Source: Shigella phage Sf22
DNA: 64,000 bases
Sequence record: MF158045
Reading direction: 5' to 3' (one strand)
The notes below the pieces were generated by a model. The model saw nothing but the letters and a program-made list of their open reading frames with translations, had not been told where the DNA came from and searched no databases. Shown here piece by piece: positions 2,944 to 39,234 of this stretch; within the stretch, counting starts at the first letter, position 1, and every line of letters begins with the position of its first letter. The translations under genes and the position numbers were made by a program.

Positions 2944-5040
2944 TTATCCTTGAACGAACTTGTAAGGCATGTTTGTAATATCTATGCAAGACGCAATAAT
3001 TCCAAGAGATGATTCTACTTTCTGTTTAACATTTGATGAAACAAATGATGCAAAGTCAACTCTGTCTTCTATTTCAATATCACCTGTCATTGCAACTACT
3101 TCGCCAGTTTCCATTAAACGGTCACCGTCATAAATTACCGATTCGGTGAGTTCTTCGGTGGTCATAACTTCAGCTTGAATGAGTTTTGTATTATTAGACG
3201 TGGTTCCGTCATTATTAGAAGCATCAGTTATTTTATTAACTTTGACCATCAATCCGCGCGGTAGAATAACTTCGGCTTCTGTTGCTATTCCGAGACTTCC
3301 TGGATATACAACATTAACTTTATGAGCTCCATCAATTGCCCATCCTATTTGAACTTTAACGTATTCAGGATTTTCTTTATACGCTCTTATTTCGTTTGGA
3401 TTAATAGTTATTCCTTCTTCATTTTTATCAACTGTTAATTCATTGCGAGCTTCTGGTTCTAAAAGACCAATACCAGCATGTGTAATTCCAAAACGTCCAA
3501 AAATGATAGGAGTTAAAGAAGTAGATACAAAATTTCTGAAATAGAACACTTTATTTTTAACTAGTGCTTCGTATATAGGAGCAGTCATACTTTGAGCACG
3601 ATAAACTGTAATGCCTTCCGGTATACGGTCACCATTTTCAAAAGCTGAATCTAAATTATTTATAGCAGATTCAATTTCTTTTTCACTCATTATATCATAT
3701 CGTTCTGGATTGTAACGACCTAAAAGAAGATTATTGATGTCTGTATATCCTGAACCACAATACTCTCTAATGCCGCGCTTTTGTGATGGAGTATATTTAG
3801 AACCATCACGGGCAATAGTAATATCAATCATTGGACCTGCACCAATTCCGGAAAAGCTATAAATCATTCGTTTGAGGAATTTAGTTTTTGCTGCATTCCA
3901 GGCATTTTTAGTTATTTCTCCCCAGACTTCATCTGGTTGCCCTTTACGAGTTTTATTATGTTTATCAAGCCAATTATCTTTATATTCTTCAAAGAATTTA
4001 TTAACAGCTGCTGCGTATTTCTCTAAACATTTTATTGAAGTAGTTGGTTCATTTTTGATTGCGTTAAAAATTACATCTTTAATTTTTTCGGAAACTTCAT
4101 CAACCTCACTTTTTGAAAAGAATTTATAGTCATAGTGAAGTTCATTCGCAGTTCCTTCGGCAATAATTTTTGCTGCCTTAGTTTTAGAAGCTAATGAATT
4201 AATTCCAAGCTTCATTTCTTCTGCTTCGGGAATTAAAGGAGCGGTAGCAGGTTTATTGAAATTAGCTGCGGTAGATTCATACTTCTGGAATAATTCACTT
4301 TCAAATCTAGAAGACTCTAACGATTGACTTTGTGCAATTGCTCTACGGGAAATTTTAACTTTAACGATTACAGCTTGGTCAGAACGTTTATCGTTTTCTT
4401 GTGCAATAGATGCTGCAATTGCCTCATTTTTAGTTACTTGAGCCCCAGTATCTTTATTGATATAAACATCACCGACCTTCGATTCAACTTTAGTAAAGAG
4501 CTCGGTACTAATTTCCGGAACTCCTGGAATGTCTTCTAGTGATACATTTTTGCGATGTATAAGAATATATGCATACTTTTTATCATAATCCCAGAGTTCC
4601 TTAAGAAGGACGTATCTGCCACCTGAACGACTACGGATAAGTCTATCAGCAATAACTTGAATTTGTCGAGCTTGACCAGCGGTTTTAGACTTAAGAATAC
4701 GGAGCATACAGGCATCAATTTTATACTGACGCATTGTTTGCATTGCAACAGTAAAAACTGAATTGATATAATTAATTGGGCTTGGACCAAGACCTTTTAA
4801 TTTAGCAATTGAACCTTTAGCAGTTAATGTAAAAGGAACAATATGCATCATTTTATCGCCCATCTTTAAATCGCGATTAGTATCACCTCCAGATGTATAG
4901 GTACATAAACGAAAGCCTGGCTGTTCAATTGCATCATCAACGTGAACTGAAAAAATTTGCGGTATTTTCTTCTTTGGATTTAAGTTTGTAATCGGAAGAG
5001 TAGTATCTTCGTCAAATAATTCTGTAATAAGTTCCATCAT
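2944..5040 (-). CDS. alt: Alt-family mono-ADP-ribosyltransferase, paralog B (698 aa)
   Basis: First ~230 aa closely similar to paralog A; central region diverged; catalytic motifs retained (VYRAQ, FVSTS, TEAEVILPRG). Which copy is the T4 alt orthologue cannot be decided without alignment. Confidence 0.85.
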   Translation of the reverse strand: MMELITELFDEDTTLPITNLNPKKKIPQIFSVHVDDAIEQPGFRLCTYTSGGDTNRDLKMGDKMMHIVPFTLTAKGSIAKLKGLGPSPINYINSVFTVAMQTMRQYKIDACMLRILKSKTAGQARQIQVIADRLIRSRSGGRYVLLKELWDYDKKYAYILIHRKNVSLEDIPGVPEISTELFTKVESKVGDVYINKDTGAQVTKNEAIAASIAQENDKRSDQAVIVKVKISRRAIAQSQSLESSRFESELFQKYESTAANFNKPATAPLIPEAEEMKLGINSLASKTKAAKIIAEGTANELHYDYKFFSKSEVDEVSEKIKDVIFNAIKNEPTTSIKCLEKYAAAVNKFFEEYKDNWLDKHNKTRKGQPDEVWGEITKNAWNAAKTKFLKRMIYSFSGIGAGPMIDITIARDGSKYTPSQKRGIREYCGSGYTDINNLLLGRYNPERYDIMSEKEIESAINNLDSAFENGDRIPEGITVYRAQSMTAPIYEALVKNKVFYFRNFVSTSLTPIIFGRFGITHAGIGLLEPEARNELTVDKNEEGITINPNEIRAYKENPEYVKVQIGWAIDGAHKVNVVYPGSLGIATEAEVILPRGLMVKVNKITDASNNDGTTSNNTKLIQAEVMTTEELTESVIYDGDRLMETGEVVAMTGDIEIEDRVDFASFVSSNVKQKVESSLGIIASCIDITNMPYKFVQG

Positions 5041-5091: not shown

Positions 5092-5278
5092 AGTAATCTA
5101 GTGGTAAGAGAGTACGATATATTTCAAACTTTGGTCCTTTTTCATAGGCATCAAATGTTTCTGTAAATTTATTATAAGCGTATGCATCTACAAATTCGAG
5201 AATGACTTGTGATACAGAAGTAGAAACATCTCCACCTTCTTTTTGAGCAATGACAATTGTTTCTAAGTAAGCTTTCAT
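5090..5278 (-). CDS. Hypothetical protein (62 aa)
   Basis: ORF track; start overlaps the ligase stop. Confidence 0.5.
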   Translation of the reverse strand: MKAYLETIVIAQKEGGDVSTSVSQVILEFVDAYAYNKFTETFDAYEKGPKFEIYRTLLPLDY

Positions 5279-6738
5279 AGACCAGTTACCTCATGAAAAT
5301 CACCAAATACATCCTCGAATGTATTAGCTTTAGTTTTATCTTCACGTAAACGAATCGCAATCGGAAGAAATAATTTAACGTAATCAGTGCGGCCATCAGA
5401 TTTTAACCAACCGTTGCATTCGCACTCTAGAATTTTTCCAATATAATAATTTTGGTTTTCCATAATGCGAGTACGGTCAAGCTCATGTGATTTTACGCCG
5501 GCTTTATCTTTTAAGCCTGAACCAGCATTTACTTTAATTTTTCCACATTCTGATTCAAGAATAAATCCACCCGCTTTAGTAGGGTCTTTACGGTGAGGAT
5601 AAATTCCTACAATTTTTAAATCAACATCAATTACTTCTTTAAATTTATAAAGATTTTTTGAACGAGCATTTTCCCATAATCCATCGATATTTTTGAGAAT
5701 AATACCTTCAAGACCTTGGTCAATATACTTTTTGTAAATTACCTTAGCTTCATCTAGGTTATTTACTACCTGGTTTTCAATTAAAATTACTTTATCATAG
5801 CCTGATGTCATTTGTTCTAGTTTAGAAAAACGTACATCATACTTTAAACGAAATGCAGGAAGACCATATATTTCTACTAATGGAACATAGTCCCAGACCT
5901 GAAACTTCATGCATTGTGCTTCTTTTTCGGAAATGGTTCCCTTTAAAGATTTATTAGCGATTCCATTAGAAGCAGTACGTGATTCAGCTACTTCGGCGAA
6001 TTCTTTAGCTTTACTAATTTCAGGATAAGCATCAAAAAGAAAATCTAGGCCTTCTGGTTCCTTTTTAACTTGCTCATGGTATACCAATTCGCCATCAATT
6101 AACACACCTTCTGGATGAATCTGGCGGGCTTCAGCGGTCATTTTGATTAACTCTTCCTTGAGAAGATCTAATCCTAGATATTCATTACCAGCTCGTGATA
6201 AAAGACGAACATCATCTAATTCATCACCTCTGACTTCAGCAAAGCACCGAGCTCCATCAGCTTTTAATTGGGCAAAGGCTGGAAATTTGATATTCTTATT
6301 AATGCCTTTTTCATCATAAGAACTTGCCAGCATTTGAGGTTGTTCAGGAATTAAACCTGGCCAAACTTTGTTTGCAATAGATACTGATGCACCACATTCA
6401 AGGTCTCGCATCATCACCCGACGCAAAACTTCAACATCATCTTTTTTACCGTCAGCAATATATCCAGTTAATTCCTCAATTGCCGCATTTCCGGTCAATT
6501 TCCGAGTAGCTAACGTTAATTCAATGAAGTCAAGCATATCGGTAAGAGTCAACATTCCAAAACTCTGGGTAGCAATACCAGGTTTAGGCCATTTCTTGAT
6601 ATAATACTGTAACCCACGAGAATAAGTCAGACGATATACTCGTTTAAGCAATTCATTATCTTTATTCTTTTCAAGAATTGCTTGCTTCTGCTTAGTTGAA
6701 CCAATAGATGCTATTTCGTTCAGAATTTTAAGAATCAT
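5275..6738 (-). CDS. 30: ATP-dependent DNA ligase
   Basis: 487 aa, MILKILNEIASIGSTKQKQAILEKNKDNELLKRVYRLTY... matches recalled T4 DNA ligase throughout. Confidence 0.97.
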   Translation of the reverse strand: MILKILNEIASIGSTKQKQAILEKNKDNELLKRVYRLTYSRGLQYYIKKWPKPGIATQSFGMLTLTDMLDFIELTLATRKLTGNAAIEELTGYIADGKKDDVEVLRRVMMRDLECGASVSIANKVWPGLIPEQPQMLASSYDEKGINKNIKFPAFAQLKADGARCFAEVRGDELDDVRLLSRAGNEYLGLDLLKEELIKMTAEARQIHPEGVLIDGELVYHEQVKKEPEGLDFLFDAYPEISKAKEFAEVAESRTASNGIANKSLKGTISEKEAQCMKFQVWDYVPLVEIYGLPAFRLKYDVRFSKLEQMTSGYDKVILIENQVVNNLDEAKVIYKKYIDQGLEGIILKNIDGLWENARSKNLYKFKEVIDVDLKIVGIYPHRKDPTKAGGFILESECGKIKVNAGSGLKDKAGVKSHELDRTRIMENQNYYIGKILECECNGWLKSDGRTDYVKLFLPIAIRLREDKTKANTFEDVFGDFHEVTGL

Positions 6739-8688: not shown

Positions 8689-8975
8689 TAGAACCTCATC
8701 TGAAAACCGTGCGATTTAACATTACCGCCGCCAATATCAGAAATGTTAATTTCACGCGCAATTGAAGGGTCAATGTCAATTTCACGATTGAGTTTAGTGA
8801 TAGCTAAAGTATCGCGCCCATTTACAGTACGAAACTCTAAAGGACAAACCACATCAACATAGTTTTTAATCGATTCGCTAGTAGGTTGCAAATGTGCAGG
8901 AAGGTCTTTAGGCGCCTTTGAGAAAACTACTTCGCAGAAGTTTTTACGGGTATCAAAATAAGTGGTCATAAACAT
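8688..8975 (-). CDS. Hypothetical protein (95 aa)
   Basis: ORF track; GAGG RBS. Confidence 0.5.
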   Translation of the reverse strand: MFMTTYFDTRKNFCEVVFSKAPKDLPAHLQPTSESIKNYVDVVCPLEFRTVNGRDTLAITKLNREIDIDPSIAREINISDIGGGNVKSHGFQMRF

Positions 8976-9015
8976 AATAATTCCTCAGTAAGGGGCTGAA
9001 GCCCCTCATTTTATT

Positions 9016-9381
9016 TTAAATATCAAATTCGTTAAGAACTACATCAAAGATTGCTTCCAAGTGCTCAGGTTTAGCTTTGTTACTCAGAATATGACGAATC
9101 CAAGTTTTAACCAAAAGCTTGCGATTAACGCCATTCCAGCAAGGATGAGCCCCTAAATCGCGTTGACGGAAATCATCATCCAGAGCGATTTTAAAGTTGG
9201 AACCTTCCATTGTGATTGAAACCGTGATACCGTTTTCAAATCGCATATAAACGTAATTAGGAGTCATATACTGTTCAATTTCGCATACTGAACCATTTTG
9301 ATGTTTCCAGAGGCAAATAGTATCAATAGAACCTGCAATACCATTAGAAACATATTTACGTTCAAAGTTAATGTAGTTCAT
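9016..9381 (-). CDS. Hypothetical protein (121 aa; start moved to MNYINF)
   Basis: Conserved leader TTGGAGAATAAAATG; the track start is a TTG inside the RBS. Confidence 0.5.
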   Translation of the reverse strand: MNYINFERKYVSNGIAGSIDTICLWKHQNGSVCEIEQYMTPNYVYMRFENGITVSITMEGSNFKIALDDDFRQRDLGAHPCWNGVNRKLLVKTWIRHILSNKAKPEHLEAIFDVVLNEFDI

Positions 9382-9406
9382 TTTATTCTCCAAGATGTTT
9401 AATTGC

Positions 9407-9446
9407 GGTACAGGTATATAATATCATATCCTGTACCAAAGTAAAC
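9407..9446 (-). promoter_or_regulatory. Early promoter (GTTTAC -35) with 8-bp inverted repeat GGTACAGG/CCTGTACC bracketing the -10
   Basis: GTTTAC-N17-TATTAT on minus strand; arms at about 9407-9414 and 9430-9437. Confidence 0.45.
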
Positions 9447-9448
9447 AA

Positions 9449-9781
9449 TTATTTTACTACTTTCCAGTGCTTCATGTCAAGTTTACCAACTTTTTTCATC
9501 TTCTCAATTAAGCGTTCGGCACGTTGGCGAGCTGTAACATAATACCATTCACCTAATTCATTTTGTTCAATTTTTCCAACGATTACTGTATTCAATTCAT
9601 AAATCCAACCAGTAAAGAAATTATGAACTTGAATTGTAAAGGTGAAATCTGTTCCCATACCTTCTGTTGTTTCTACTTCAATAATATCACCTTCAACTGC
9701 CATTAAGAACCACATAGTTTCATCATATTTACCATTGAAGCATTTAGTTTTAACTGCAGCGTTCAGATTAATCGTTTTCAT
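9449..9781 (-). CDS. Hypothetical protein (110 aa)
   Basis: ORF track; AGGAGAATAAAATG RBS. Confidence 0.5.
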   Translation of the reverse strand: MKTINLNAAVKTKCFNGKYDETMWFLMAVEGDIIEVETTEGMGTDFTFTIQVHNFFTGWIYELNTVIVGKIEQNELGEWYYVTARQRAERLIEKMKKVGKLDMKHWKVVK

Positions 9782-9865
9782 TTTATTCTCCTTTGTTTGT
9801 GTAAGATAATACTATCACAAAGGAGCTATACTGTAAACAACTTTATGCAATCTTTGGAAAATAAA

Positions 9866-9890
9866 AAAGGACTCCCGAAGGAGTCCTCAA
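9866..9890 (-). terminator. Rho-independent terminator (GGACTCC-CGAA-GGAGTCC + T-run)
   Basis: Perfect 7-bp stem followed by TTTTTTATTTT on minus strand; identical hairpin recurs after soc. Confidence 0.6.
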
Positions 9891-9891
9891 C

Positions 9892-10068
9892 TTATGCTTT
9901 CTGCTTACCAAAACGAGAAGCATCATCTCGAAGAACCGCACGTGCTCGGCGCATGATCTTCTCAACAGTTTGATTGATACGAGAGTTCGACCCACGCTTG
10001 TAACCAGCGCGTTTAGAATCACCAACTTTCTTTTCAACTGCTTTCTTTGCTTTAACTTGTTTTGCCAT
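9892..10068 (-). CDS. Small basic protein (58 aa; start at MAKQVKAKK)
   Basis: Lys/Arg-rich ORF with AAAGAG RBS; the track's N-terminal extension lacks an RBS. Confidence 0.5.
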   Translation of the reverse strand: MAKQVKAKKAVEKKVGDSKRAGYKRGSNSRINQTVEKIMRRARAVLRDDASRFGKQKA

Positions 10069-10356
10069 TAAAAATTCTCTTTTAAACGAAAATGCAGGAC
10101 TTATTGGCATTGCCTGCGAAAGCCCTCAAAGGGGTACTTAGGTTTTGAATATTTACCGACAGGATAACCATAAACCCGTCATCATACCACCAAGACTTAC
10201 ACAGATAACACTTTTCTGACGCATGATAGTAACATTCAAGAGGTACACCGTAAAACTGCCGGGGTCTTAAAACTATAATGATTCGCAAATCATTAATCAG
10301 ACAGTTCGACGGCTCCTCGATTTTAGCTCACACTAAGGCAGTGAATCTCCAATAAA

Positions 10357-10605
10357 TTACTTCAGTGTTACCACAAAGTGACGAACTGCTTTTCGTGCAG
10401 CAGAAGCCAGAGGCTTAGCATATTTAAGTTCATCTTTTTCCTGAAGCTCAGCAGCTAATGCAGTTTGAGCAGGATTCAGATGTTTGAAATAACGCAGGAT
10501 TTCAAGAGCTTCGGCTTCAACATCAATAGATGCGCCATAGTTTTCGTGACCATTATTCCATGCGTTTCGTTGCAGTTCAAGAGCGTGTTGTAATTGTTTA
10601 ATCAT
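10357..10605 (-). CDS. rIII: rIII lysis-inhibition accessory protein
   Basis: 82 aa, MIKQLQHALELQRNAWNNGHENYG... matches recalled T4 rIII; synteny. Confidence 0.9.
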   Translation of the reverse strand: MIKQLQHALELQRNAWNNGHENYGASIDVEAEALEILRYFKHLNPAQTALAAELQEKDELKYAKPLASAARKAVRHFVVTLK

Positions 10606-10744
10606 TTAAAAATTCTCGTTAGAGATTAAAACTCGGTAGTCACGTTCTTCTGAATTTCATCTTCTTTCGACAGATCTCTCAGTTGTAGACTACCACATAG
10701 AATTGTTCGGTTAACTTATTATTCCGACACCCAATTCATATTAT

Positions 10745-15650: not shown

Positions 15651-16147
15651 AAAGTTTTAATAACCTCTATAATATCGTCTTGAGAAAGACCGTTAATTAA
15701 AATATGATGTTCAGCTGGAGATTTAGAAATTTTAAAGCATGCCTCAACATCTTCTGCCATATCCGATGCACTACGATTTGGATTACTAATACCAAGGCGG
15801 TGTTTTCCCGTCAAAGGATTAACGATGATATAGCATTTGCAGCTATTGATATGAACATTGGGTTGAGTCTGATTAATGAACACTTCACAATCATACTTAG
15901 CGAGTTGATTTTCTAAAAAGACTTTCATCTCTTCAACCGCATCAGGAAGCATATCACGGGCTTGCTCAAGACGACGATTTCGATATTCTTTAATGGTCGT
16001 TTTCCGCTTGACTTGCTTAGCTAAATCTTTCTTAAGATCGGTGATATATCCAACTCGACGATTTCCTTTGAATACAGAAATCCCATCTGTAGTATCACCG
16101 TATGCTTCAACGACCATTTCAGTAGTAATAAGTTGTAAATCCATCAT
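15641..16147 (-). CDS. alc: Alc, inhibitor of host transcription on cytosine-containing DNA
   Basis: 168 aa, MMDLQLITTEMVVEAYGDTTDG... matches recalled T4 Alc; synteny. Confidence 0.9.
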   Translation of the reverse strand: MMDLQLITTEMVVEAYGDTTDGISVFKGNRRVGYITDLKKDLAKQVKRKTTIKEYRNRRLEQARDMLPDAVEEMKVFLENQLAKYDCEVFINQTQPNVHINSCKCYIIVNPLTGKHRLGISNPNRSASDMAEDVEACFKISKSPAEHHILINGLSQDDIIEVIKTLCN

Positions 16148-16175
16148 AAAGTCCTCATGTTATGTCAGTAAGACT

Positions 16176-16205
16176 ACTATAACACAACACGAGGGACTTG
16201 TAAAC
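16176..16205 (-). promoter_or_regulatory. Early promoter, copy 2 of the duplicated 54-bp promoter-leader cassette
   Basis: Sequence identical to 830-883; GTTTAC-N18-TATAGT, leader and GAGGA immediately upstream of the alc ATG. Confidence 0.5.
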
Positions 16206-16208
16206 AGC

Positions 16209-17796
<1,588 letters not shown>

Positions 17797-17823
17797 AATA
17801 AAATGGGCCTTGCGGCCCACTCC
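17797..17823 (-). terminator. Stem-loop GGGCC-TTGC-GGCCC between nrdB and denA
   Basis: Perfect 5-bp GC stem followed by ATTTTATT on minus strand. Confidence 0.4.
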
Positions 17824-19002
17824 TTAAAAGTATTTTTTAAAACTCATCATAACTTTATCATCAACATCATTATCAATCTGTGCAACAAGATAAGATGACA
17901 GTTCTACTTCTTGTGGCGCGGATTGAACATTATCAGAATTAAGATATTCACGAATCCAAGGATATGGATGTTTAACCGGAGCATCGGTAATTGGGCATGG
18001 AAGACCGCACTGTTTCATACGAGATACAGTTAAGTAATCAATAAAGCTCCACATGCTATTTGTATTTAATCCAGGAACATCGCCATCTTTAAATAAATGA
18101 ACTGCCCAATCTTTTTCTTGGCGGTTAACTTCCATGAAAATATCAACTGCTTCTTGTTCACACTCTTGAGCAATTTTAACCCATTGACCGCCATCAGTAC
18201 CAGATTGAAGTTGACGAATAATATATTGGGTGCCTTTAAGGTGAAGCTGTTCATCGCGTGCAATGAACTTCATAATCTTGGCATTACCTTCCATGATTTC
18301 CATGTTCTTATGGAAGTTAAAGGTACATGCGAAAGATACATAAAAACGAATAGCTTCCAATGCGTTGATTACATGCAAACAGAGGTAAAGAGATTTCATT
18401 AGCTCACGCTTCCAATATGTCTCATGCTCAATAGCATCTTCAATAACGTCTTCGTCTGCATTAATTTCTTTTTGGTATTCGATATCAGCTTTAGCGTTTT
18501 CCCAATAACGAGTTTTAATCAGAACATCATCATAATAACGTCCAATGGATTCAGCACGTTTCATAATAGCTTCATCTAATACAATTTCATCAAATACCTT
18601 CGATGGATCAGTATAAAGATTTCGCATGATATGAGTATATGAACGACTGTGAATAGTTTCACTAAAAGTCCATGTAGCAACCCATGTATCAAGACTTGGG
18701 TCTGAAATTAATGACATAAGTACAGCAGATGGCGCGCGACCCTGAATACTATCTAAAAGTGATTGATACTTCAAGTTGTTAGTAAAAATATTTTGCTGAT
18801 ACTGAGGAAGCTTATTAAACTGTGCAGCATCCATCATCAAGTTTACTTCTTCAGGACGCCAGAAAAATGATAATTGCTTTTCGGTTAAATCTTCAAAAAC
18901 TTTATGACGTTGAATATCATAACGCGCAATACCAAGACCTGAACCAAAAAACATAGGTTCTTTTAAAACATCAACTGGATTTGTATTAAAAACTGTGCTC
19001 AT
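17824..19002 (-). CDS. nrdB: Ribonucleotide reductase small subunit, uninterrupted
   Basis: 392 aa continuous ORF with di-iron ligand motifs; no intron or internal endonuclease ORF. Confidence 0.95.
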   Translation of the reverse strand: MSTVFNTNPVDVLKEPMFFGSGLGIARYDIQRHKVFEDLTEKQLSFFWRPEEVNLMMDAAQFNKLPQYQQNIFTNNLKYQSLLDSIQGRAPSAVLMSLISDPSLDTWVATWTFSETIHSRSYTHIMRNLYTDPSKVFDEIVLDEAIMKRAESIGRYYDDVLIKTRYWENAKADIEYQKEINADEDVIEDAIEHETYWKRELMKSLYLCLHVINALEAIRFYVSFACTFNFHKNMEIMEGNAKIMKFIARDEQLHLKGTQYIIRQLQSGTDGGQWVKIAQECEQEAVDIFMEVNRQEKDWAVHLFKDGDVPGLNTNSMWSFIDYLTVSRMKQCGLPCPITDAPVKHPYPWIREYLNSDNVQSAPQEVELSSYLVAQIDNDVDDKVMMSFKKYF

Positions 19003-19053
19003 AAATTTTCCGCTTAGTTAATAGTTGGTGACTCGTCCGTGAGTCAAATTATA

Positions 19054-21318
19054 TCATAATTTACAGGATGAACAATCTTCAGCTTTTGGAGTTTCTATTT
19101 CATAATCATCAGTACCAGAACCATCGCGGGTATTATGATAATAGAAATTTTTTCCGCCAAAATACCAAAAATACAAAAGGTCATCAATCATTATTGACAT
19201 TGGAACCTTGCCTTTAGGGAAGATTTGGGGGTCATAGTATGTATTCGCCGAAGCTGATTGACATACCCATTTCAGCATAATAGCTACCTGCGTAAGATAA
19301 GGTTTATTACCTTTCTTAGCTAATTTCCATGTATAGTCGTAAAGGTCTATGTTATGCTCAATATTGGGCACGACCTGATTAAAGGAGCCTTCTTTTGATT
19401 CTTTAACAGAGACTGGTCCACGTGGAGGCTCGATACCGTTTGTACTGTTAGAAACTTGGGAAGATGACTCACATGGCATAAGTGATGATAATGTGCTATT
19501 ACGGATGCCAAAGAGCTTAAGGTCTTCCCGCAGCGCCGACCAGTCACAAACGTATTTTGGAGCTGCGATTTGGTCAATCTTTTTATTGTACCAGTCGATA
19601 GGTAATTCGCCTCGAGACCAACGAGTGTCTGAATAATATTCGCAAGGTCCTTTTTCTTTGGCGAGCTTAATGGATGCTTTAATGAGTCCATACTGTAATC
19701 TCTCAAATAGTTCATGTGTTAAATCGTTAGCATCTTCATAAGAAGCAAAGTTACTTGCCAGCCAAGCTGCATAGTTAGTAACACCTACACCAAGGTTTCG
19801 ACGCTTTTTAGCTTTTTCTGCTTCAGGAACTGGATATCCTTGGTAATCCAAAAGATTATCAAGAGCACGAACTTGAACTTCTGCTAATTCATTAATTTTA
19901 TCTTGGTCTTGCCAATCGAAGTTATCCAGCACAAATGCAGATAACGTGCACAATCCAATTTCAGCATCAGGACTATTCACATCATTTGTTGGAATAGCAA
20001 TTTCACAACACAAGTTACTCTGACGAATAGGTGCCTTTTCACGAATAAACGGAGTGTAGTTATTCGTATTATCAATGAACTGCACATAAATCCTTGCTGT
20101 TCCTGAACGTTCAGTCATGAGCAATTCAAATAGTTCACGGGCTTTAATACGCTTTTTGCGAATATTAGGGTCTTTTTCTGCTGCTTCGTATAATTCACGG
20201 AAACGGTCTTGGTCTTTAAAATAAGAATAATAAAGCTCGCCACCCATTTCATGCGGACTGAACAAAGTAATGTAATCGTTCTTTCCGAATCGTTCCATCA
20301 TCAAATCATTCAGCTGAACACCATAATCCATGTGACGAATGCGGTTTTCTTCTACGCCTTTGTTATTTTTCAAAACGAGAAGATTTTCAACTTCCAAATG
20401 CCAAATAGGATAATAAGCAGTAGCAGCGCCGCCACGAATTCCACCCTGTGAGCATGATTTAACTGCAGTCTGAAAATGTTTCCAAAAAGGAATAACACCA
20501 GTATGGCGTACTTCACCCATGCCAATCTTAGAACCTTCAGCACGAATCATACCAACGTTAATACCAATTCCAGCGCGTTTAGAGATATATTCAACAATTG
20601 AAGCGGAAGCCTTATTGATAGACTTTAATGAATCACCTGCCTCAATAACAACGCATGAACTAAACTGTCGAGTCGGAGTACGACAACCAGCCATAATAGG
20701 AGTTGGCAATGAAATCTGTCGAGTAGATACCGCTTCATAAAAACGGATAACATGTTTTAATCTATCAACAGGTTCATCTTGATGCAGTGCCATTCCAATA
20801 GTCATAAATGCAAACTGTGGAGTTTCATAAATTTGACCAGTGGTTTTATCTTTAACTAAATATTTTTCTTTTAATTGCATCGCCCCGGAATAAGTAAATT
20901 CCATATCCCGCTCGTGCTTAATTTTTGATTCTAAAAATGTAATTTCTTCTGCTGAATATTTTGACAATAATTCAGGGTCATATTTACCTGCATTTACACA
21001 ATAAGAAATATGGTCAATAAATGAACGTGGTTCATACTGCCCATAAACATGCTTACGAAGAGCGAACATTAAACAGCGAGCGGCTACATATTGGTAATCA
21101 GGCTCTTCAACCGAAATAGAATTCGCAGCAGCCTTAATGACAATAGTCTGAATATCATCAGTTGTCATTCCATCACGGAGATAAGATTTAATATTTTCAT
21201 ATAATTCATAAGGATCTACTGATGTTCCCTCAGCTGCCCAAGATAAAACTTTAATAATTTTTTGTGGGTCAAAGCTCTGAGAAACACCACTACTTTTGAT
21301 AACATTAATTAATTGCAT
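19054..21318 (-). CDS. nrdA: Ribonucleotide reductase large subunit
   Basis: 754 aa; N-terminal ATP-cone region and conserved C-terminal Cys; synteny. Confidence 0.95.
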   Translation of the reverse strand: MQLINVIKSSGVSQSFDPQKIIKVLSWAAEGTSVDPYELYENIKSYLRDGMTTDDIQTIVIKAAANSISVEEPDYQYVAARCLMFALRKHVYGQYEPRSFIDHISYCVNAGKYDPELLSKYSAEEITFLESKIKHERDMEFTYSGAMQLKEKYLVKDKTTGQIYETPQFAFMTIGMALHQDEPVDRLKHVIRFYEAVSTRQISLPTPIMAGCRTPTRQFSSCVVIEAGDSLKSINKASASIVEYISKRAGIGINVGMIRAEGSKIGMGEVRHTGVIPFWKHFQTAVKSCSQGGIRGGAATAYYPIWHLEVENLLVLKNNKGVEENRIRHMDYGVQLNDLMMERFGKNDYITLFSPHEMGGELYYSYFKDQDRFRELYEAAEKDPNIRKKRIKARELFELLMTERSGTARIYVQFIDNTNNYTPFIREKAPIRQSNLCCEIAIPTNDVNSPDAEIGLCTLSAFVLDNFDWQDQDKINELAEVQVRALDNLLDYQGYPVPEAEKAKKRRNLGVGVTNYAAWLASNFASYEDANDLTHELFERLQYGLIKASIKLAKEKGPCEYYSDTRWSRGELPIDWYNKKIDQIAAPKYVCDWSALREDLKLFGIRNSTLSSLMPCESSSQVSNSTNGIEPPRGPVSVKESKEGSFNQVVPNIEHNIDLYDYTWKLAKKGNKPYLTQVAIMLKWVCQSASANTYYDPQIFPKGKVPMSIMIDDLLYFWYFGGKNFYYHNTRDGSGTDDYEIETPKAEDCSSCKL

Positions 21319-21635
21319 AAGTCCTCAACTTGAAAATCGTCTTTAAACAATCGGTTAACTATATGAGCTATTATATCACCATGACACGGCTTTGGTTTAC
21401 ATGTGCATCCTAGCCTCATTCCACGTAAAGGCTCTAAATGTGCTTTAGTTATTTCTCCGGATTTAATTCGACGTATAAAATCTTTTTTGAATAATTCAAT
21501 GGCAGCCTCCCGGCTGCCAGCATCTTTACCGACGTAATTTCCCCAAAATGTACCGCGGTGAATATTAACATCAAAGTCGGATTTATATTTATTCACTACC
21601 CGGCATAGACGGCCCACGCTGGAATAATTCGTCAT
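21309..21635 (-). CDS. Hypothetical Cys-rich protein (108 aa), nrdA.1 position
   Basis: ORF track; [13 protein letters not shown] motif; overlaps nrdA start and the upstream ORF. Confidence 0.5.
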
Positions 21636-21864
21636 ATTGTTTTTCCGTTAATACAGTAATATCATAGTAACAGTCAGAAGAAGTTTTAACTGTGGAAATT
21701 TTATTATCAAAATACTCACGAGTCATTTTATGAGTGTAGTATTTTTTACCATAAATGGTAATAGGCTGTTCTGGTCCTGGAACTTCTAACTCGCTTGGGT
21801 TAGGAAGTGTAAAAAGAACGGCACCAGAAGTATCTTTAAATCGTAAAATCATATATCCTCGCAA
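21589..21864 (-). CDS. Hypothetical protein (91 aa)
   Basis: ORF track; 47-nt out-of-frame overlap with the next ORF. Confidence 0.45.
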
Positions 21865-21872
21865 TAATAAAA

Positions 21873-22733
21873 TTACACCGCCATCTTTCCTTTAATAGGA
21901 GGGTGTGATTCATAGTTGTTAAGAACAAAATTATGCGGCTTTGCGAATTGACTCAACCAAAATACCTGCGATTCTGTGTCCCATTCATCAAATTCATCTG
22001 GAAATTTTAATTGCAATTCGCATAAATCCATAGGTTCACGACGCAAAATTTCTTTACATTGCTCTACGTGATTCATATAGATATGAGTATTACCACCAGA
22101 AAATATCAAATCTCCGGGAATAAGATTACACATCTTAGCTACAATATGCGTCAAGGCAGCGTACGAGGCAATGTTGAATGGCAAGCCCAAGAAAACATCT
22201 ACACTTCTTTGGTACCACTGCAAATCCAAATAGCCATTACGCACATTAAACTGATAGAACATATGACAAGGCGGTAATGCCATATATTTAAGTTCAGCTG
22301 GATTCCACGCAGAAACAATTTGACGCCTATCATTCGGCAGTTTTTTAATACGATCAATAACTTCTACAATTTGGTCTACACCGCCAAAATCACGCCATTG
22401 TTTTCCATAAATTGGACCAAGTTCACCGCTATGGTATCCTAAATCTTTTGCCTGATTTTCGTAATTTTCATCCCAAACTGTTTTGCCTTGGATTAATGAA
22501 TCATGCTGAATTAATCGTAAATCATTGACATTTGTGCTTCCTGACAAAAACCATATTAACTCAGCAATGCATGCATTCCAGGCGAGCTTTTTAGTTGTTA
22601 CTGCAGGAAAACCTTTGGTTAAATCCCAACGCAATTTAGTACCGAACAAAGCAATTGTTCCTGTGCCTGTTCGGTCATCGGTTTCATAACCATTTTCAAA
22701 AATGTCTTTAATTAAATCTTGGTATTGTTTCAT
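21873..22733 (-). CDS. td: Thymidylate synthase, uninterrupted
   Basis: 286 aa continuous [29 protein letters not shown]...; no intron. Confidence 0.95.
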
Positions 22734-22777
22734 TTAGTACCTTATATAAATTATAATACATTTTATGAAGCTAATAA

Positions 22778-23137
22778 TTAATACGGTTTAGCATCAAATT
22801 TTCTCTCAATTTCAGGCGTGAAATATAATTCTTTACCGCGTTTGGAAAAACGACCAATAATATGATAATTATTCTCATCAAACGTGATATTGCCGATATC
22901 CATAGCTTTCAACCAAATATCGATATTTCTGTCAAGCTTTATATCAAAATTCCAATACGGAGAACTATTACCAAAAATACTGCAAGCGGATTCAGTGAAA
23001 CAACTGCTATAAATTTTGTCTTTAGGAACTATTAATTGATAGACGCCTTTAATAAACTGAGGACCTTGCCATTTTGGTTGTTTCGCGTCTTTTTCTAATA
23101 GAATAGGGTAATAATTAAAATTCATATTTTCCGCCAC
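22778..23137 (-). CDS. Hypothetical protein (119 aa from GTG, or 115 aa from ATG at ~23125) between frd and td
   Basis: ORF track; not recalled at this position in T4, where frd and td abut. Confidence 0.5.
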   Translation of the reverse strand: MAENMNFNYYPILLEKDAKQPKWQGPQFIKGVYQLIVPKDKIYSSCFTESACSIFGNSSPYWNFDIKLDRNIDIWLKAMDIGNITFDENNYHIIGRFSKRGKELYFTPEIERKFDAKPY

Positions 23138-23145
23138 GTATTATT

Positions 23146-23972
<827 letters not shown>

Positions 23973-23983
23973 ATTATCTCCTA

Positions 23984-24316
23984 TTAAAAAGGATCAGGAA
24001 TATATCCGCTAGCTTTAATCATTTTAATTAACGTTAGCATTCCTTTATTAACCGCTAGTGAGATTTCATCAAAAACTTCATCACTAAAAAGTTCTAACAC
24101 ACCCTTCTGAACTTTTAATTTACAGCCAACAATTTCGTCATCGCCTATAGTAAATTCATTACCACCAATTCCTCCGAAAAACTTAATTACACCAGTTAAC
24201 TGTCTTCCACGAGAATATGGGTCGTGTGATAAAGTAATATGAGTCACCCCGGGTACAGTTTTAAATTGGCAGCGAATATTTACTTGTGAAATTCCAGTTA
24301 CATGAATATCAGACAT
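23984..24316 (-). CDS. Hypothetical protein (110 aa)
   Basis: ORF track. Confidence 0.5.
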   Translation of the reverse strand: MSDIHVTGISQVNIRCQFKTVPGVTHITLSHDPYSRGRQLTGVIKFFGGIGGNEFTIGDDEIVGCKLKVQKGVLELFSDEVFDEISLAVNKGMLTLIKMIKASGYIPDPF

Positions 24317-24326
24317 AATATTTTCC

Positions 24327-24569
24327 TCAAATAGACTTTTTCACAATTTTCCAATCAGCTTTAAACTGATCGACGTCAGAGTGATAAATCCAAAATCCTG
24401 CGCTTTCTCCATCCTCATAAAGAGGGCATCCATCACATTCATCTTCCCATCCCATATCACGCAAAAGACGTTCAGCTTTTTCAACAAGTTCAGAATCTTT
24501 ACCAATAATATTAAAATACCATTTACCTCTAACTTCTGAATCTTTGATACTCTGACGTTGTAATCTCAT
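24327..24569 (-). CDS. Hypothetical protein (80 aa; start moved to MRLQRQ)
   Basis: The track's N-terminal 19 aa read through a promoter (GTTTAC at ~24619-24624) and the AAGGAG RBS. Confidence 0.5.
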   Translation of the reverse strand: MRLQRQSIKDSEVRGKWYFNIIGKDSELVEKAERLLRDMGWEDECDGCPLYEDGESAGFWIYHSDVDQFKADWKIVKKSI

Positions 24570-24626
24570 TTTATTCTCCTTAGTTGATAAGGCTATAGTA
24601 TCACTACCATAGCCTGTTGTAAACAA

Positions 24627-24887
24627 TTATTTTTGAATTTTATCGAGCCACTTACCAAGCTTAATCATTTCTTTAGTAGCCTTTTCCATACTTCTGAACT
24701 TAACCAATAGAGGATAGGTATCGACACCCATAACTAAGCTGGTTACAAGACTGTGTTCACCCACAAGCCATAACGAATACGTTTGAATATCGAGCCCATA
24801 ATTTCTGTCTTTATGGACCCGTACACCCATCACTTCAAATTTCTCACTAGCTTTTTCTACCGCATCCAGGAAATCATCTTTAGTCAT
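24627..24887 (-). CDS. Hypothetical protein (86 aa; start moved to MTKDDF)
   Basis: ORF track; internal Met removes a 41-nt overlap with the upstream gene. Confidence 0.45.
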   Translation of the reverse strand: MTKDDFLDAVEKASEKFEVMGVRVHKDRNYGLDIQTYSLWLVGEHSLVTSLVMGVDTYPLLVKFRSMEKATKEMIKLGKWLDKIQK

Positions 24888-24888
24888 A

Positions 24889-25269
24889 TTAGGCCTTAAA
24901 AGTTTTTCGCAAAAGTTCAATGATTTCATCTACATTGTTTTCGTCAACAATGCAGTGAATTTTTGTTACGCCAGAAACCTTGTCTTTGACTTCATCTTTT
25001 TCAGAAGTCGGTTCTTTATACTCACGAAAACAATGAAATTCGTCTTCGCAAATTTCTAAAAGTCTATCTTTGAGGTAAAAATGCTTTCCATTTGCGCATT
25101 CAATGTGTTTTACTGCTTTATATCCATTAGCGACGGAAACTTCTTTAACTTCAAACCATCCGCCATTATCTCGAATCGCTTTAACTATTGATGAATTAGA
25201 ACGTGGGCTATAATTAATAAATGTATCAATAAGTCTTGGAACAAGTTCATACTTTTTGCCGATATACAT
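24889..25269 (-). CDS. Hypothetical protein (126 aa)
   Basis: ORF track. Confidence 0.5.
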   Translation of the reverse strand: MYIGKKYELVPRLIDTFINYSPRSNSSIVKAIRDNGGWFEVKEVSVANGYKAVKHIECANGKHFYLKDRLLEICEDEFHCFREYKEPTSEKDEVKDKVSGVTKIHCIVDENNVDEIIELLRKTFKA

Positions 25270-25689: not shown

Positions 25690-26598
25690 TTAAAGGTCAT
25701 TCAAAAGGTCATCCAGGTCCGTGTCATCAGCACTAGATGAACTGCCAGAGCTTGAGCTCATAAAATCATCTTCAGTTTTTGTATTGAAGTCATCAACATT
25801 GAATGCATCCAAATCATCAGCAACTTTATCAGCTTTCTTAGCGGCAGTTGCTGCGGCACCGCCCATCACAGCAGTTCCCATAACTTGACCGAATTTAGTG
25901 CTCAGTTCTTCAAACGATTTGAATTTATCTTTAGAAGTCATTTCAGAAAGGTCAACCATTTGTTCGAACAGTTCTTTCTGGAAAGATTCATCATCAATGT
26001 TTGGAATCGCAGATTGATTCAGGAATTTAGATTCGTCGTAGTTACTAAAACCAGAAACTTGTTTAACTTTCAGTACAAAGTTAGCACCTTCCCACGGACA
26101 AGTTACATCAACCGGAGTTTCACCCATTTCAACATCAACTGCAATCATTGCATTGATTTTATCCCAGATTTTCTTACCGAAACGGTATTTAAATACTTTA
26201 CCTTCGTTTTCTGGAGCAGCTGGGTCTTTTACTACAAGAATGTTAGCCCAGTAAGAAGTTTTACGTTTAACAAGACCGTACTCTTTATTGTCAGTGTTGT
26301 ACAGATCATTTTTACTAATGTATTGACATACTGGGCAAGAATCGTAATCACCGTGGGTAGATGAACAGTTTTCAATATACCATTTACCATTTTTCTTGAA
26401 ACCGTGATTTACAAGAATTGCGAATGGTGCTTGTTCATCATTTTTAGACGGAAGAAAACGAATTACTGCTTGACCGTTACCCGCATTATCGAGTTTCAGT
26501 TTCCACTCGCCTTTATCTTCAGAAGAAAAACCGCCTTTATTTCCAGCCAGTTTAGCCATTTGTGCAGCGAGTTCAGCAGTAGATTTACGTTTAAACAT
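25690..26598 (-). CDS. 32: Single-stranded DNA-binding protein
   Basis: 302 aa, [51 protein letters not shown]... with acidic Ser/Asp-rich C-terminus; matches recalled T4 gp32. Confidence 0.97.
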
Positions 26599-26664
26599 TT
26601 TTATTTCCTTTTTAATTTAATTAACAGTTGGTGCTATGACGATGTATGACCTCATAGCTGGTCA
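26599..26664 (-). promoter_or_regulatory. Gene 32 translational operator: AU-rich leader plus upstream pseudoknot-forming segment
   Basis: Leader on minus strand reads ...GUGCUAUGACGAUGUAUGACCUCAUAGCUGGU... followed by UUAAAUUAAAAAGGAAAUAAAAAUG, matching the recalled T4 autoregulatory site. Confidence 0.6.
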
Positions 26665-26681
26665 GTGAGATAATTATAATC

Positions 26682-26689
26682 TATTTATA
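26682..26689 (-). promoter_or_regulatory. Candidate late promoter (TATAAATA) upstream of gene 32
   Basis: Exact TATAAATA on minus strand. Confidence 0.4.
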
Positions 26690-26697
26690 ATAAGCAA

Positions 26698-27351
26698 TTA
26701 ATACTTGCAAGATTTCACAGTTTCAATAAAAACACTTTTAGCTTTCTGTGAATCAATATTTAAAATTTTTCTATAAGCCTTTAACTTTATAGAATAATTA
26801 TTCCAGACTAAATTATCAGTCTGTTCATCATGTTTATCAATTATATTTAAAAACGAATCAAGCAAGATAAACGTCTCAAACGAAATTATGTTCGATTGCA
26901 GAAGTTTAAAAATATAACTTGACTGAACCTTTGGATTATATTCAAAGATTTCTTTAAAAGCAGAAACTTCAACTTTTTTACTAAAATAATAAATGTTGCG
27001 AATATCTTCTTCAAACTTAAATTTAATTTGCTTTAAGCGTCCGATATATTCACGATAAAACACAAGTGCATCAGCGTCAGAGATGTCACCAATCCAAGCA
27101 TCTTGGTTAGCAACCAAATTGCTTATAAAGATTAAAGCAAGTTCCTTTAATTTATATTTTTCTGATAACTTCTGGAAAAAATACTTATCCCTTCGCTTTT
27201 GATAAGCGGCATCAGACACCCGCATGCACCAATTATACTTAATAACATCATACTTTCCATTCATATGCTGTTTTATCATTAAGTATAATTTATAAACTGA
27301 TTTACCATCAATGTATCTTTCACCACCAGCAGGCATGCGGAGTTTAATCAT
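26698..27351 (-). CDS. 59: Helicase loader
   Basis: 217 aa, MIKLRMPAGGERYIDGKSVYKLYLMIKQHMNGKYDV... matches recalled T4 gp59. Confidence 0.93.
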   Translation of the reverse strand: MIKLRMPAGGERYIDGKSVYKLYLMIKQHMNGKYDVIKYNWCMRVSDAAYQKRRDKYFFQKLSEKYKLKELALIFISNLVANQDAWIGDISDADALVFYREYIGRLKQIKFKFEEDIRNIYYFSKKVEVSAFKEIFEYNPKVQSSYIFKLLQSNIISFETFILLDSFLNIIDKHDEQTDNLVWNNYSIKLKAYRKILNIDSQKAKSVFIETVKSCKY

Positions 27352-34687: not shown

Positions 34688-37600
34688 ATGGCTACTTTAA
34701 AACAAATACAATTTAAAAGAAGCAAAACCGCAGGAGCACGTCCTGCTGCTTCAGTATTAGCCGAAGGTGAATTGGCTATAAACTTAAAAGATAGAACAAT
34801 TTTTACTAAAGATGATTCAGGAAATATCATTGATCTAGGTATTGCTAAAGGCGGTCAAATTGATGGAAATGTAACTATTGATGGAACTTTACGCGTCAAT
34901 GGACCAATAAACAACTTTGGAAATTTTTCTACAAGTGGTACTATTACGGCAAGTAATATTGTTTCTGCTACAGTATTCAGATCAACATCCGGTTCATTTT
35001 ATACAAGAGCAATAAATGATACTGCAAATGCCCATCTTTGGTTTGAAAATACGAATGGATCGGAGAGAGGGGTTTTATATTCAAAACCACAGTCTGAAAA
35101 TGAAGGCGTAATTACAATGCGCGTTCGCCAAGGAACCGCAGCAGGGGCTCAAAATTCAGAATTTCATTTCATTTCTACTGATGGCGGTATCTTCCAGGCA
35201 CGCAAATTAACTGCTTTAACTTCTATTAGTACACCAACTATTAGTGTTAATTTAATTAATCATGATTCTAAAGCCTTTGGACAATACGATTCACAATCAT
35301 TAGTTCAGTATGTTTATCCTGGAACCGGTGAAACAAATGGTGTAAACTATCTTCGTAAAGTTCGAGCTAAATCAGGTGGAACTATTTACCATGAAATTTG
35401 TACAGCTCAGACTGGGCTAGCTGATGAAGTTTCTTGGTGGACTGGTAATATACCGTTATTTAAACTATACGGTATTCGTAACGACGGTAGAATGATTATT
35501 CGCAATAGCTTGGCCATTGGTACTGTGACGGAAGGGTTTCCGTCAAGCGATTATGGAAATACTGGGGTAATGGGAGATAGGTATTTAGCTCTTGGCGATA
35601 ATGCTTCTGGACTTAAATGGGTTCGTACTGGCGTTATTGACTTAATGGCTAACGGTATTTCTGCGGCGTCTATTATTAATAATGGTATTAACAGTACTAA
35701 AAAATTAATGGTTGGTTATAGTCGAGATTCTGGTTCTACTTGGGATTTCCCAAATAACAACCAAGCAATGTTTACTGCGCGTACCGATGTTGATGGTAAT
35801 AATAACGGTGATGGTCAAACTCATATCGGTTATAGCAGTAATTCTAAAATGTATCACTATTTCCGTGGTACAGGTCGTATGTCCGTTAGTATGGGCGATG
35901 GACTTCTTGTTGAGCCTGGCATTTTAGATATTAAAACTGGTTCAAATTCATTAAATTTGCGTGCTGATGGTACTGTTGCATCTACTCAAGAAGTTAAGCT
36001 TAATAATGGGTTATTCTTTAATAGTAGTTCTTCTAACGCCGGTCTTAAATTTGGCGCTTCTTCTTCTATAAATGGAACTAAGACAATACAATGGAACGCA
36101 GGCACCCGCCCGGGTCAGAACAAAAGCTATGTGACCATGAAAGCATGGGGCAATGCATTTGAGGATAATACTAATAAAAACAGAGAAACTGTATTTGAAT
36201 TAGGCGATGGACAGGGTTGGCATTTTTATTCACAGCGCGTTGCTCCTGCAGCAGGTTCTACTGCCGGTTCTGTTGAATTTGCGATGGCCGGTAGTTTATT
36301 AACTTCTGGTTCTATTACAACAAGATCTTCCCTGAATGCTGATAATGGATTGTCTGTAAATGGACAAGCTAAATTTGGTGGAACGGCTGATGTATTAAGA
36401 ATTTGGAATGCTGAATACGGTGCTATTTTCCGTCGCTCAGAAAGTAATCTTTATATTATACCGACTCCTAAAGATGCTGGAGAATCGGGCGGTATAAGTA
36501 ATCTTAGACCATTGATAATAGAACTGAACACTGGCACAGTTAAAATGTCGCATGATGTTCATTTAGGAGATTCTGGATCTGGTACAGGACTTTTACAAGT
36601 AAGTAATAGTCTTAAAACTATTAAAATGATATGTCCAGTAACTATTAATGAACGCAATGCAGCGCTTACCCTGGATTCTCCTTCATCTTCTTCTGCTAAT
36701 TATTTACAGGGTTCTAAAGCTGGAACTAGATCATGGTACGTTGGTCTTGGCGGCGCTGGAAATGATTTATCTCTTTATAGCCAATCTTATGGACATGGTC
36801 TTGTTATAAGTGATAATTTCACGTCAATCACTAAGCCTCTTAAAGTCGGCAATGCCCAATTAGGAACTGACGGTAATATTACCAATGGTTCAGGAAACTT
36901 TGTCAACTTAAATACCACGTTAAATCGTAAAGTTAATTCTGGATTTATTACTTATGGAGCAACCTCTGGATGGTATAAGTTTGCAACAGTAACAATGCCA
37001 CAATCCACTTCGACGGTCTTCTTTAAAATAGTTGGAGGTTCTGGATTTAATAGCGGATTATTCACACAATGTAATATTGCTGAAATTGTTTTACGTACTA
37101 GTAATGAAAGACCTTCTGACTTAAATGCTGTATTATACACAAGAACAACTGGAATGTATAGCGCAGCATTTAGAAATATTGCAGTTAACAATGTCTCTGG
37201 AAATACATATGACATTTATGTTTATGCTGGAACATATTGTAATCAACTAGTTTGTGAATGGTCATGTACCGAAAATGCTACTGTTAGCGTTATTGGTATT
37301 AACTCATCTACCCAATCACCTGTGGATGCTCTTCCAGATACAGCAGTTGATGGGCAAGTTGCTAATGTTCTTAATAACTTGGTTGATCGTGGTAAAGTTA
37401 AGCGTTATGAAGCCGATTCTGAAATAGCTATTAATAGCCAAACCGGTATTCGTATCAGAAGCAATGCCGATAAAACTGGTTCTGTGGCTACAATGTTACG
37501 AAATGACGGTGGCAGTTTTTATATTCTGTTTACAGATAAAAATGCCACTGATGGCGCAGCAACTGTTAATGGTGATTGGAATAGTAAACGTCCTTTCGCA

Positions 37601-38377: not shown

Positions 38378-38379
38378 AA

Positions 38380-38400
38380 GAGGGCTTCGGCCCTCTAAGG
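38380..38400 (+). terminator. Stem-loop AGAGGGC-TTCG-GCCCTCT after gene 37
   Basis: Perfect 7-bp stem; weak T-tract, so may be a stability element rather than a strong terminator. Confidence 0.4.
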
Positions 38401-38407
38401 ATTTTTA

Positions 38408-39202: not shown

Positions 39203-39234
39203 TTTTTGAATAAATATCCTTAAAAGGAGGGTCT

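Follow-up and report, generated by a model that had tools for sequence, protein, structure and literature searches.

In phage T4, the thymidylate synthase gene td and the ribonucleotide reductase small-subunit gene nrdB are each annotated as a two-exon join (record NC_000866), with I-TevI encoded in the td intron and a truncated I-TevIII in the nrdB intron, and mobE and nrdB.1 are situated between nrdA and nrdB. Does the corresponding cluster of Shigella phage Sf22 carry any of these elements, and if it does not, are its empty sites targets for them? We examined positions 17824-22733 of a 64,000-nt stretch of the Sf22 genome (MF158045), hereafter the window. A preliminary description had taken td (286 aa) and nrdB (392 aa) for single continuous open reading frames (ORFs), had found just 51 bp between nrdA and nrdB and no homing-endonuclease ORF, and had proposed that the phage carries the unoccupied homing sites; the T4 arrangement that it assumed, introns with endonucleases in td and nrdB and a free-standing gene between nrdA and nrdB, agrees with the T4 record. 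The phage is a Tequatrovirus, whose best database match, Shigella phage ESh31 (ON528741), aligns over 17300-23800 as a single colinear piece with 99.2% identity. With a probability of about 0.95, we consider the interval to be the Tequatrovirus frd-td-nrdA-nrdB-denA cluster in its T2-type form, free of the elements.

The T4 genes were spliced explicitly at the known exon junctions and then aligned to the window. In td, exon 1 ends in CTTGGGT, the intron runs from TAATTGAGG to ATAATG, and exon 2 begins with CTACCG; in nrdB, exon 1 ends in TTTTGCGT, the intron runs from AAAATGCG to CATACG, and exon 2 begins with GTACCTTT. A blastn comparison with T4 gave colinear blocks in which T4 DNA was skipped at exactly three places: ∼600 nt in nrdB, ∼700 nt between nrdA and nrdB, and ∼1020 nt in td. 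Pairwise alignment placed the td site between 22185 and 22184, where exactly 1017 nt, the T4 td intron, is missing, and the nrdB site between 18327 and 18326, where exactly 598 nt, the T4 nrdB intron, is missing. Both junctions are seamless, and the proteins read through them (..VDVFLG/LPFNIA.. in td and ..YVSFAC/TFNFHK.. in nrdB); no intron-like insertion or missed endonuclease ORF came to light, and the two genes are single continuous ORFs as first described. Alignment, rather than chance statistics or Rfam, is the decisive test of intron absence, and its result is unambiguous: the td and nrdB junctions are unbroken, and both introns and mobE/nrdB.1 are absent.

The 696 bp that hold nrdB.1 and mobE in T4 are replaced in the window by a spacer of the length originally reported, which shares 47 of its 51 nt with the T2 spacer. 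A terminator scan of the spacer found no terminator-like site, and phages lacking mobE have also been reported to have no terminator between nrdA and nrdB (PMC2790892). The stem TGACTC..GAGTCA in the spacer was considered as a terminator and rejected; it has no T-run and gave no scanner match. Apart from these 51 bp, the whole of 17824-22733 is accounted for by colinearity with T4.

The encoded proteins were as expected of intact genes. TD matched Thymidylat_synt (PF00303, 3.5e-95) over profile positions 1-266 of 266 in one reading frame, and NrdB matched Ribonuc_red_sm (PF00268, 6.7e-37) over positions 9-271 of 281, also in one frame; NrdA matched PF02867 and PF00317 (Ribonuc_red_lgC/lgN) and the ATP-cone PF03477 (1.8e-134). 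Compared with the spliced T4 products, TD is identical at 255 of 287 aligned positions and NrdB at 363 of 395, and NrdA at 744 of 754 residues. The lengths of td and nrdA equal those in T4. NrdB exceeds its T4 counterpart by 4 aa, in a variable segment far from the intron junction, and its length is exactly that of T2 NrdB; the two nrdB genes are identical at 1104 of 1179 nt. Two short segments could not be aligned with T4 DNA and encode different peptides, one at td sense nt ∼700-790 (aa 235-262; window 21873-22040) and one at nrdB aa ∼170-195 (window 18420-18500); outside them, td and nrdB are 94 to 98% identical to T4. Many database td genes stop aligning at the 3' segment (query 159-861), which suggests that the unalignable segments are alternative mosaic cassettes. 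In order of transcription, on the minus strand, the cluster reads frd, a 115-aa ORF, td, nrdA.2, nrdA.1, nrdA, the spacer, nrdB, denA, and rnlA (Table 1).

Table 1. Genes, spacer, insert, and endonuclease target regions of the Sf22 frd-rnlA segment, in window coordinates
Feature	Position	Strand	Basis
rnlA, RNA ligase 1	16209-17369	-	Pfam
denA, endonuclease II	17386..17820	-	Pfam GIY-YIG 5.4e-06; PHROG 1111; 99.3% identical to T4 DenA
nrdB, class Ia ribonucleotide reductase small subunit, 392 aa, one ORF, intronless	17824..19002	-	ORF list; Pfam
nrdB intron-equivalent site, empty, ..TCTTTCGCAT/GTACCTTTAA..	18326..18327	-	Alignment to T4 exons
Predicted MobE target region, nrdB nt 114-156	18847..18889	-	Homology to proposed T2 target
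nrdA-nrdB spacer, 51 bp	19003..19053	-	ORF list; comparison with T4 and T2
nrdA, ribonucleotide reductase large subunit, 754 aa, unbroken	19054..21318	-	ORF list; Pfam
nrdA.1 homologue, DUF4326 (PF14216, 5.5e-22), colinear with T4 nrdA.1, non-endonuclease	21309..21635	-	
nrdA.2 homologue, DUF5496 (PF17600, 1.5e-62), colinear with T4 nrdA.2, non-endonuclease	21589..21864	-	
td, thymidylate synthase, 286 aa, one ORF, intronless	21873..22733	-	ORF list; Pfam
I-TevI target homologue, 38 bp, -27 to +11 around the insertion site between 22185 and 22184	22174..22211	-	Alignment to T4
401-bp insert between frd and td, absent from T4	22737..23137	-	Comparison with T4
115-aa ORF in the 401-bp insert	ATG at 23125, stop at 22778	-	
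frd	23146-23727	-	Pfam DHFR

Searches for hidden endonucleases bore out the earlier statement that the interval holds no homing-endonuclease ORF. Pfam identified no homing-endonuclease domain in any ORF of 17824-22733, embedded and opposite-strand ORFs included, and no nuclease domain in nrdA.1 or nrdA.2; as positive controls, I-TevI of phage ESCO58 gave its GIY-YIG, zinc finger, NUMOD3, and DNA-binding domains, and HNH was found in T4 MobE and in a gene of phage Aplg8. Nine T4-type queries (I-TevI; I-TevIII, both truncated from T4 and full length from phage Bas43; MobE from T4 and Aplg8; nrdB.1; SegG; SegF; and mobA) were run against the whole window by tblastn, with denA as a positive control at 1.6e-96. 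The best match, at E=0.019, was a chance match inside alt; the GIY-YIG queries (I-TevI, SegG, and SegF) gave E values of at least 0.019, and the HNH-type queries (MobE, I-TevIII, nrdB.1, and mobA) of at least 0.65. No HNH ORF lies between nrdA and nrdB or inside nrdB, and the spacer is too short for an ORF. Hef is excluded solely by the lack of any insert. The sole GIY-YIG match is denA/EndoII; it was rejected as a homing endonuclease, being of the GIY-YIG family but a host-DNA-degrading enzyme without a DNA-binding module.

The empty arrangement is common. Our statements on distribution rest on two 2010 reviews (PMC2988022, PMC2993671) and on our own database sampling. Of the 30 closest records, 25 have nothing at any of the three sites; among 30 records spaced evenly at Tequatrovirus-level identity, 12 have a span equal to that of the query, and hence three empty sites, the others carrying at least one element. 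When td was considered by itself, a single place covered at least 80% of the gene in 486 of 683 matching records, a count that takes in a few short introns without an ORF, and in ∼168 the match was split in two places by an insert of about 1 kb. The same empty arrangement is found in ESh31, whose td is 100% identical and which shows point differences only, and in GiZh, KIT03, RB51, RB18, and others. T4 is regarded as an outlier, most T-even genomes carrying few endonucleases (PMC2988022), and Table 5 of PMC2993671 lists T2 with 1 endonuclease gene and RB26, RB69, and JS98 with none.

T2 (PV648364/NC_054931) has the same architecture as the window throughout: an nrdB of 1179 nt, a 51-bp spacer, an nrdA of 2265 nt, nrdA.1, nrdA.2, an uninterrupted td of 861 nt, and an extra ORF of 348 nt between td and frd. 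It differs in td sequence, being only 86.9% identical there (748/861), and in its I-TevI target, which is 6/38 bp off T4 as against 10/38 here. T4 has the same gene order and orientation, with exons mostly 94 to 97% identical. In contrast to the window, it carries the td intron with I-TevI, the nrdB intron with truncated I-TevIII, mobE and nrdB.1, segG, and the mobA/gene-60 split, and it lacks the 401-bp insert between frd and td.

Near relatives carry single elements, each precisely where the window has an empty site. In Aplg8 (97.9% identical) the spacer is replaced by a MobE-like gene for a 248-aa HNH+NUMOD1 protein, ESCO58 (96.6%) has a td intron with I-TevI, and TadeuszReichstein/Bas43 (96.1%) has an nrdB intron with full-length I-TevIII; phiD1 likewise has an nrdB intron with full-length I-TevIII, and HP3 has an ORF-less td intron. 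The Aplg8 gene (retrieved piece 1887-2633) is nearly identical to T4 MobE at its N terminus, and its T4 counterpart (retrieved piece 5217-5917) comprises mobE (141 aa, HNH) and nrdB.1 (83 aa, NUMOD3); the T4 annotation may thus represent a split version of one longer endonuclease. The published distribution of the elements is inconsistent even between the closest relatives (PMC2988022, PMC2993671). The suggestion in the preliminary description that the empty sites are useful for strain placement is doubtful: the elements are unsuited to that purpose because near-identical relatives, 96 to 98% identical to the window, differ in them, Aplg8, ESCO58, and Bas43 each carrying a different one.

We then considered whether the empty sites would be recognized by the corresponding endonucleases. 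I-TevIII cuts at positions -14/-16 (PMC1865063). The nrdB intron flanks differ from the T4 exons at only 4 of 65 nt (-35, -32, -5, and -2), and the sequence from -30 to -6, cut positions included, is identical to the T4 exon substrate. MobE-dependent nicks have been mapped to nt 122-126 of T2 nrdB, and the proposed target is bipartite, with the FFWRPEE codons coming after polymorphic nt 114-131; every mobE-lacking phage described has AAG as codon 42 (PMC2790892). In the window, codon 42 is AAG (Lys), the FFWRPEE codons lie at 18847-18867, and nt 114-131 differ from the experimentally nicked T2 sequence at a single position, nt 129. Set against T4, nrdB nt 1-500 show 52 mismatches, of which 15 fall inside nt 114-135. 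The reading of nrdB as an unoccupied homing site appears well founded on this homology.

The td site has diverged further. The I-TevI target spans 38 bp; the enzyme cleaves at CAACG, 23 and 25 nt upstream of the point of intron insertion, binds primarily a 20-bp region centered on the insertion site, contacts the minor groove, and tolerates sequence variation (PMC2988022). Within the cleavage motif, CNNNG, C1 and G5 are critical, and many central triplets make poor substrates (PMC5009752). The window has CAAAG at 22207-22211, at the correct distance, so that C(-27) and G(-23) are retained and the central triplet is AAA as against AAC in T4; the main text of PMC5009752 gives no data on CAAAG as a substrate. 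Ten of the 38 target positions differ from T4, 5 of them in the 20-bp binding region, as do 17 of the 65 nt around the insertion site, and every one of these changes is synonymous. Beside the cut site they include two multistep codon switches, Arg CGC to AGA and Ser TCA to AGT. T2, with its own differences from T4, served as recipient in T4 x T2 crosses that measured I-TevI-mediated td co-conversion (PMC2790892). Cleavage of the window td allele by I-TevI is plausible. The proposal of unoccupied homing sites thus stands in that all three sites are empty and the nrdB targets are conserved; for td, where the target departs from that of T4, cleavability could only be inferred.

The strongest differences between the window and T4 in this cluster coincide with the endonuclease target sites. 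Of 48 mismatches to T4 over td nt 1-690, the 65 nt that surround the insertion site hold 17 (hypergeometric P=2e-7, independence assumed). The window td 65-mer is found uninterrupted in 141 phage records. The 65-mer formed by joining the T4 exons occurs uninterrupted in no database genome record, and T4-type flanks are seen only beside an intron. Intron-bearing alleles (T4 and ESCO58 for td; T4 and Bas43 for nrdB) share T4-type exon flanks, and intron-free alleles (the window, GiZh, and Aplg8) share the other flank haplotype, a split to be expected because exon co-conversion during homing predicts it (PMC2988022). The pattern of divergence fits exon flanks travelling with the elements by co-conversion, together with altered, self-immune targets in element-bearing genomes.

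The 401-bp insert between frd and td lies just outside 17824-22733 and was overlooked in the first reading. In T4, frd and td overlap; here the insert sits between imperfect copies of the frd/td junction, and it is also present in T2, GiZh, ESCO58, and Bas43, the GiZh annotation describing it as "flanked by 9 bp repeat". Orthologues of its 115-aa ORF are labelled "hypothetical" in GiZh and T2, "putative dihydrofolate reductase" in ESCO58, and "putative homing endonuclease" in Bas43. No Pfam family was identified in any of 23 homologues, PHROG 1928, to which the ORF belongs, is of unknown function, and no PDB sequence match was found. All but one of the homologues are stand-alone proteins of 95 to 116 aa. 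The invariant residues are Q16, W19, G27, G91, K95, and G97, with no catalytic motif among them. An AlphaFold2 model had a mean confidence (pLDDT) of 48.9 with a 4-sequence alignment and of 91.8 with 23 sequences.

Could an element nevertheless be present in or beside the cluster? The interval might contain an overlooked endonuclease pseudogene, or an overlooked intron that is degenerate or lacks an ORF, and Rfam would not have settled the matter by itself. The covariance model RF00028 gave no match in the window at its gathering score; this negative was discarded because T4, used as a positive control, was also unmatched at that score. At E≤1, the model found the T4 nrdB intron (35.7 bits) but left the ORF-bearing td intron (retrieved T4 piece 8736-10613) undetected, and thus covariance-model scans alone can miss endonuclease-bearing phage introns. 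The same model detected the ORF-less td intron of HP3 at 70.3 bits (retrieved HP3 piece 503-784) and nothing at E≤1 over 16000-25000 of the window, the tblastn searches were negative, protein lengths equal those of T4 (td and nrdA) or T2 (nrdB), and base-by-base colinearity with the spliced T4 genes leaves no spare DNA. The alignments have already refuted an overlooked element, whose probability we regard as negligible. That the 115-aa ORF is a homing endonuclease after all, as its public annotation in Bas43 has it, might draw on the position of the insert, in a junction that otherwise overlaps and between copies of junction sequence, and on its presence in T2, GiZh, ESCO58, and Bas43 and absence from T4. 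However, the label is unsupported by tests of sequence or fold (Pfam, PDB, and conserved residues), and we consider it highly improbable.

Two further alternatives concern how the sites came to be as they are. The introns or mobE may once have been present and been lost by precise deletion, leaving sites that were emptied secondarily rather than never invaded. Degeneration and loss belong to the life cycle of homing endonucleases (PMC5009752), and ORF-less td introns in relatives (HP3, and a span longer by 323 bp in Elenatom) would represent decay intermediates within the group. Against such a history, the window has the intron-free haplotype at both sites, where T4, ESCO58, and Bas43 have T4-type flanks; the last base of td exon 1 is C, whereas the base immediately 5' to the intron is T in T4 and ESCO58, the two intron-bearing alleles examined; no remnant of an intron or of mobE of any length was found; and the spacer is nearly that of T2. 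The flank haplotypes argue against recent precise loss, which seems improbable to us; between neutral mosaicism and selected resistance they do not distinguish. Resistance would mean that the td allele is immune to I-TevI, its synonymous cluster having been selected, or brought in, for the protection that it gives against cleavage and entry of the intron. This possibility draws on the number of target and flanking positions changed without any amino acid change, the two codon switches, the alteration of 5 of the 20 bp in the primary binding region, the significant clustering of mismatches at the site, the very poor cleavage of some CNNNG triplets (PMC5009752), and the wide occurrence of the haplotype in intron-free phages. 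On the other side, the critical C and G are kept at the right distance (PMC5009752), the enzyme is tolerant and binds the minor groove (PMC2988022), T2 was a recipient in td co-conversion crosses (PMC2790892) with 6 of 38 positions already changed, and neutral mosaicism is equally possible, the window td being just 86.9% identical to that of T2. We regard an immune allele as unlikely, if worth keeping in view. A little less likely still is the wider proposal that the synonymous block is an evolved or imported immunity that has spread through ∼140 Tequatrovirus genomes as a population-level defense against a selfish intron; if it were true, the block would stop intron invasion while leaving thymidylate synthase unchanged.

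Nothing weighs against the structural statement that the cluster is an element-free, T2-type version; the limits touch the functional predictions, which are drawn from sequence. The hypergeometric P value treats the mismatches as independent, which they would not be had the td patch come in by one recombination event. Rfam is blind to an ORF-bearing td intron of the T4 type, so that the alignment by itself excludes one. The prediction that the genome is a recipient is weakened at td, where the target is further from that of T4 (10/38) than the T2 target is (6/38), the central triplet is AAA, and many CNNNG sequences are cleaved poorly (PMC5009752).

Elsewhere in the window, colinearity with T4 over the 64 kb and tblastn showed that T4 segG and mobA are absent. 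Genes 32 (25690-26598) and 59 (26698-27351) are separated by 99 bp (26599-26697), without the ∼620 bp of T4 segG. Gene 39, for the topoisomerase II large subunit, is one unsplit ORF of 606 aa (50756-52576, minus strand), and the 1104 bp that T4 has there, comprising the gene-60 split, the 50-nt translational bypass, 60.1, and mobA, are absent. No endonuclease domains were found in ORFs of the window stretches that have no T4 counterpart. Two tandem minus-strand ORFs, 883-2940 (685 aa) and 2944-5040 (698 aa), occupy the place of alt and alt.-1/-2/-3 in T4; the former has an ADP-ribosyltransferase domain (PF03496) and the latter a blastn match to T4 alt, and they are apparently two full-length Alt paralogues. 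Inserts relative to T4 also lie between frd and frd.2 (23747-24259 and 24584-24895), with ORFs of 81 aa (PHROG 3183), 110 aa (DUF7247), and 100 aa (PHROG 4423), none of which has a nuclease domain. The distal tail fiber region (36485-39209) is unrelated to T4 DNA, and gp38 (38408-39202) is a T2-type adhesin (PF05268, PF21721), not an assembly chaperone of the T4 type.

In an element-free cluster, td and nrdB would be translated directly, with no RNA splicing step, and nrdB follows nrdA after a spacer that keeps a Shine-Dalgarno sequence and has no terminator. By analogy with published T2 x T4 work, the window genome should be the recipient when it infects a cell together with T4 or another phage that carries the elements. 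Repair of the nick that MobE is predicted to make in nrdB, at about nt 122-126, would bring in mobE and, by co-conversion, the nrdB intron; at td, where the target has diverged, cutting by I-TevI could go either way.

The empty arrangement is ordinary, common, and already known. Variable td, nrdB, and nrdD introns and seg/mob genes among T-even phages have been known since 1987-1989, and the variable occurrence of introns in close T-even relatives was the original clue to the mobility of these elements. The significance of the locus is slight beyond correct annotation, for which td and nrdB require no join() features. As a by-product, the comparison yields a catalogue of natural target-site variation, such as the td haplotype with 10 of 38 positions changed and the critical C and G retained, which could help in profiling the specificity of I-TevI or MobE. 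The presence or absence of the elements should not serve as a phylogenetic marker. In crosses that test homing or marker exclusion, the phage would be expected to act as a recipient in the manner of T2, which is poor in endonucleases and is the classical recipient in marker exclusion with T4.

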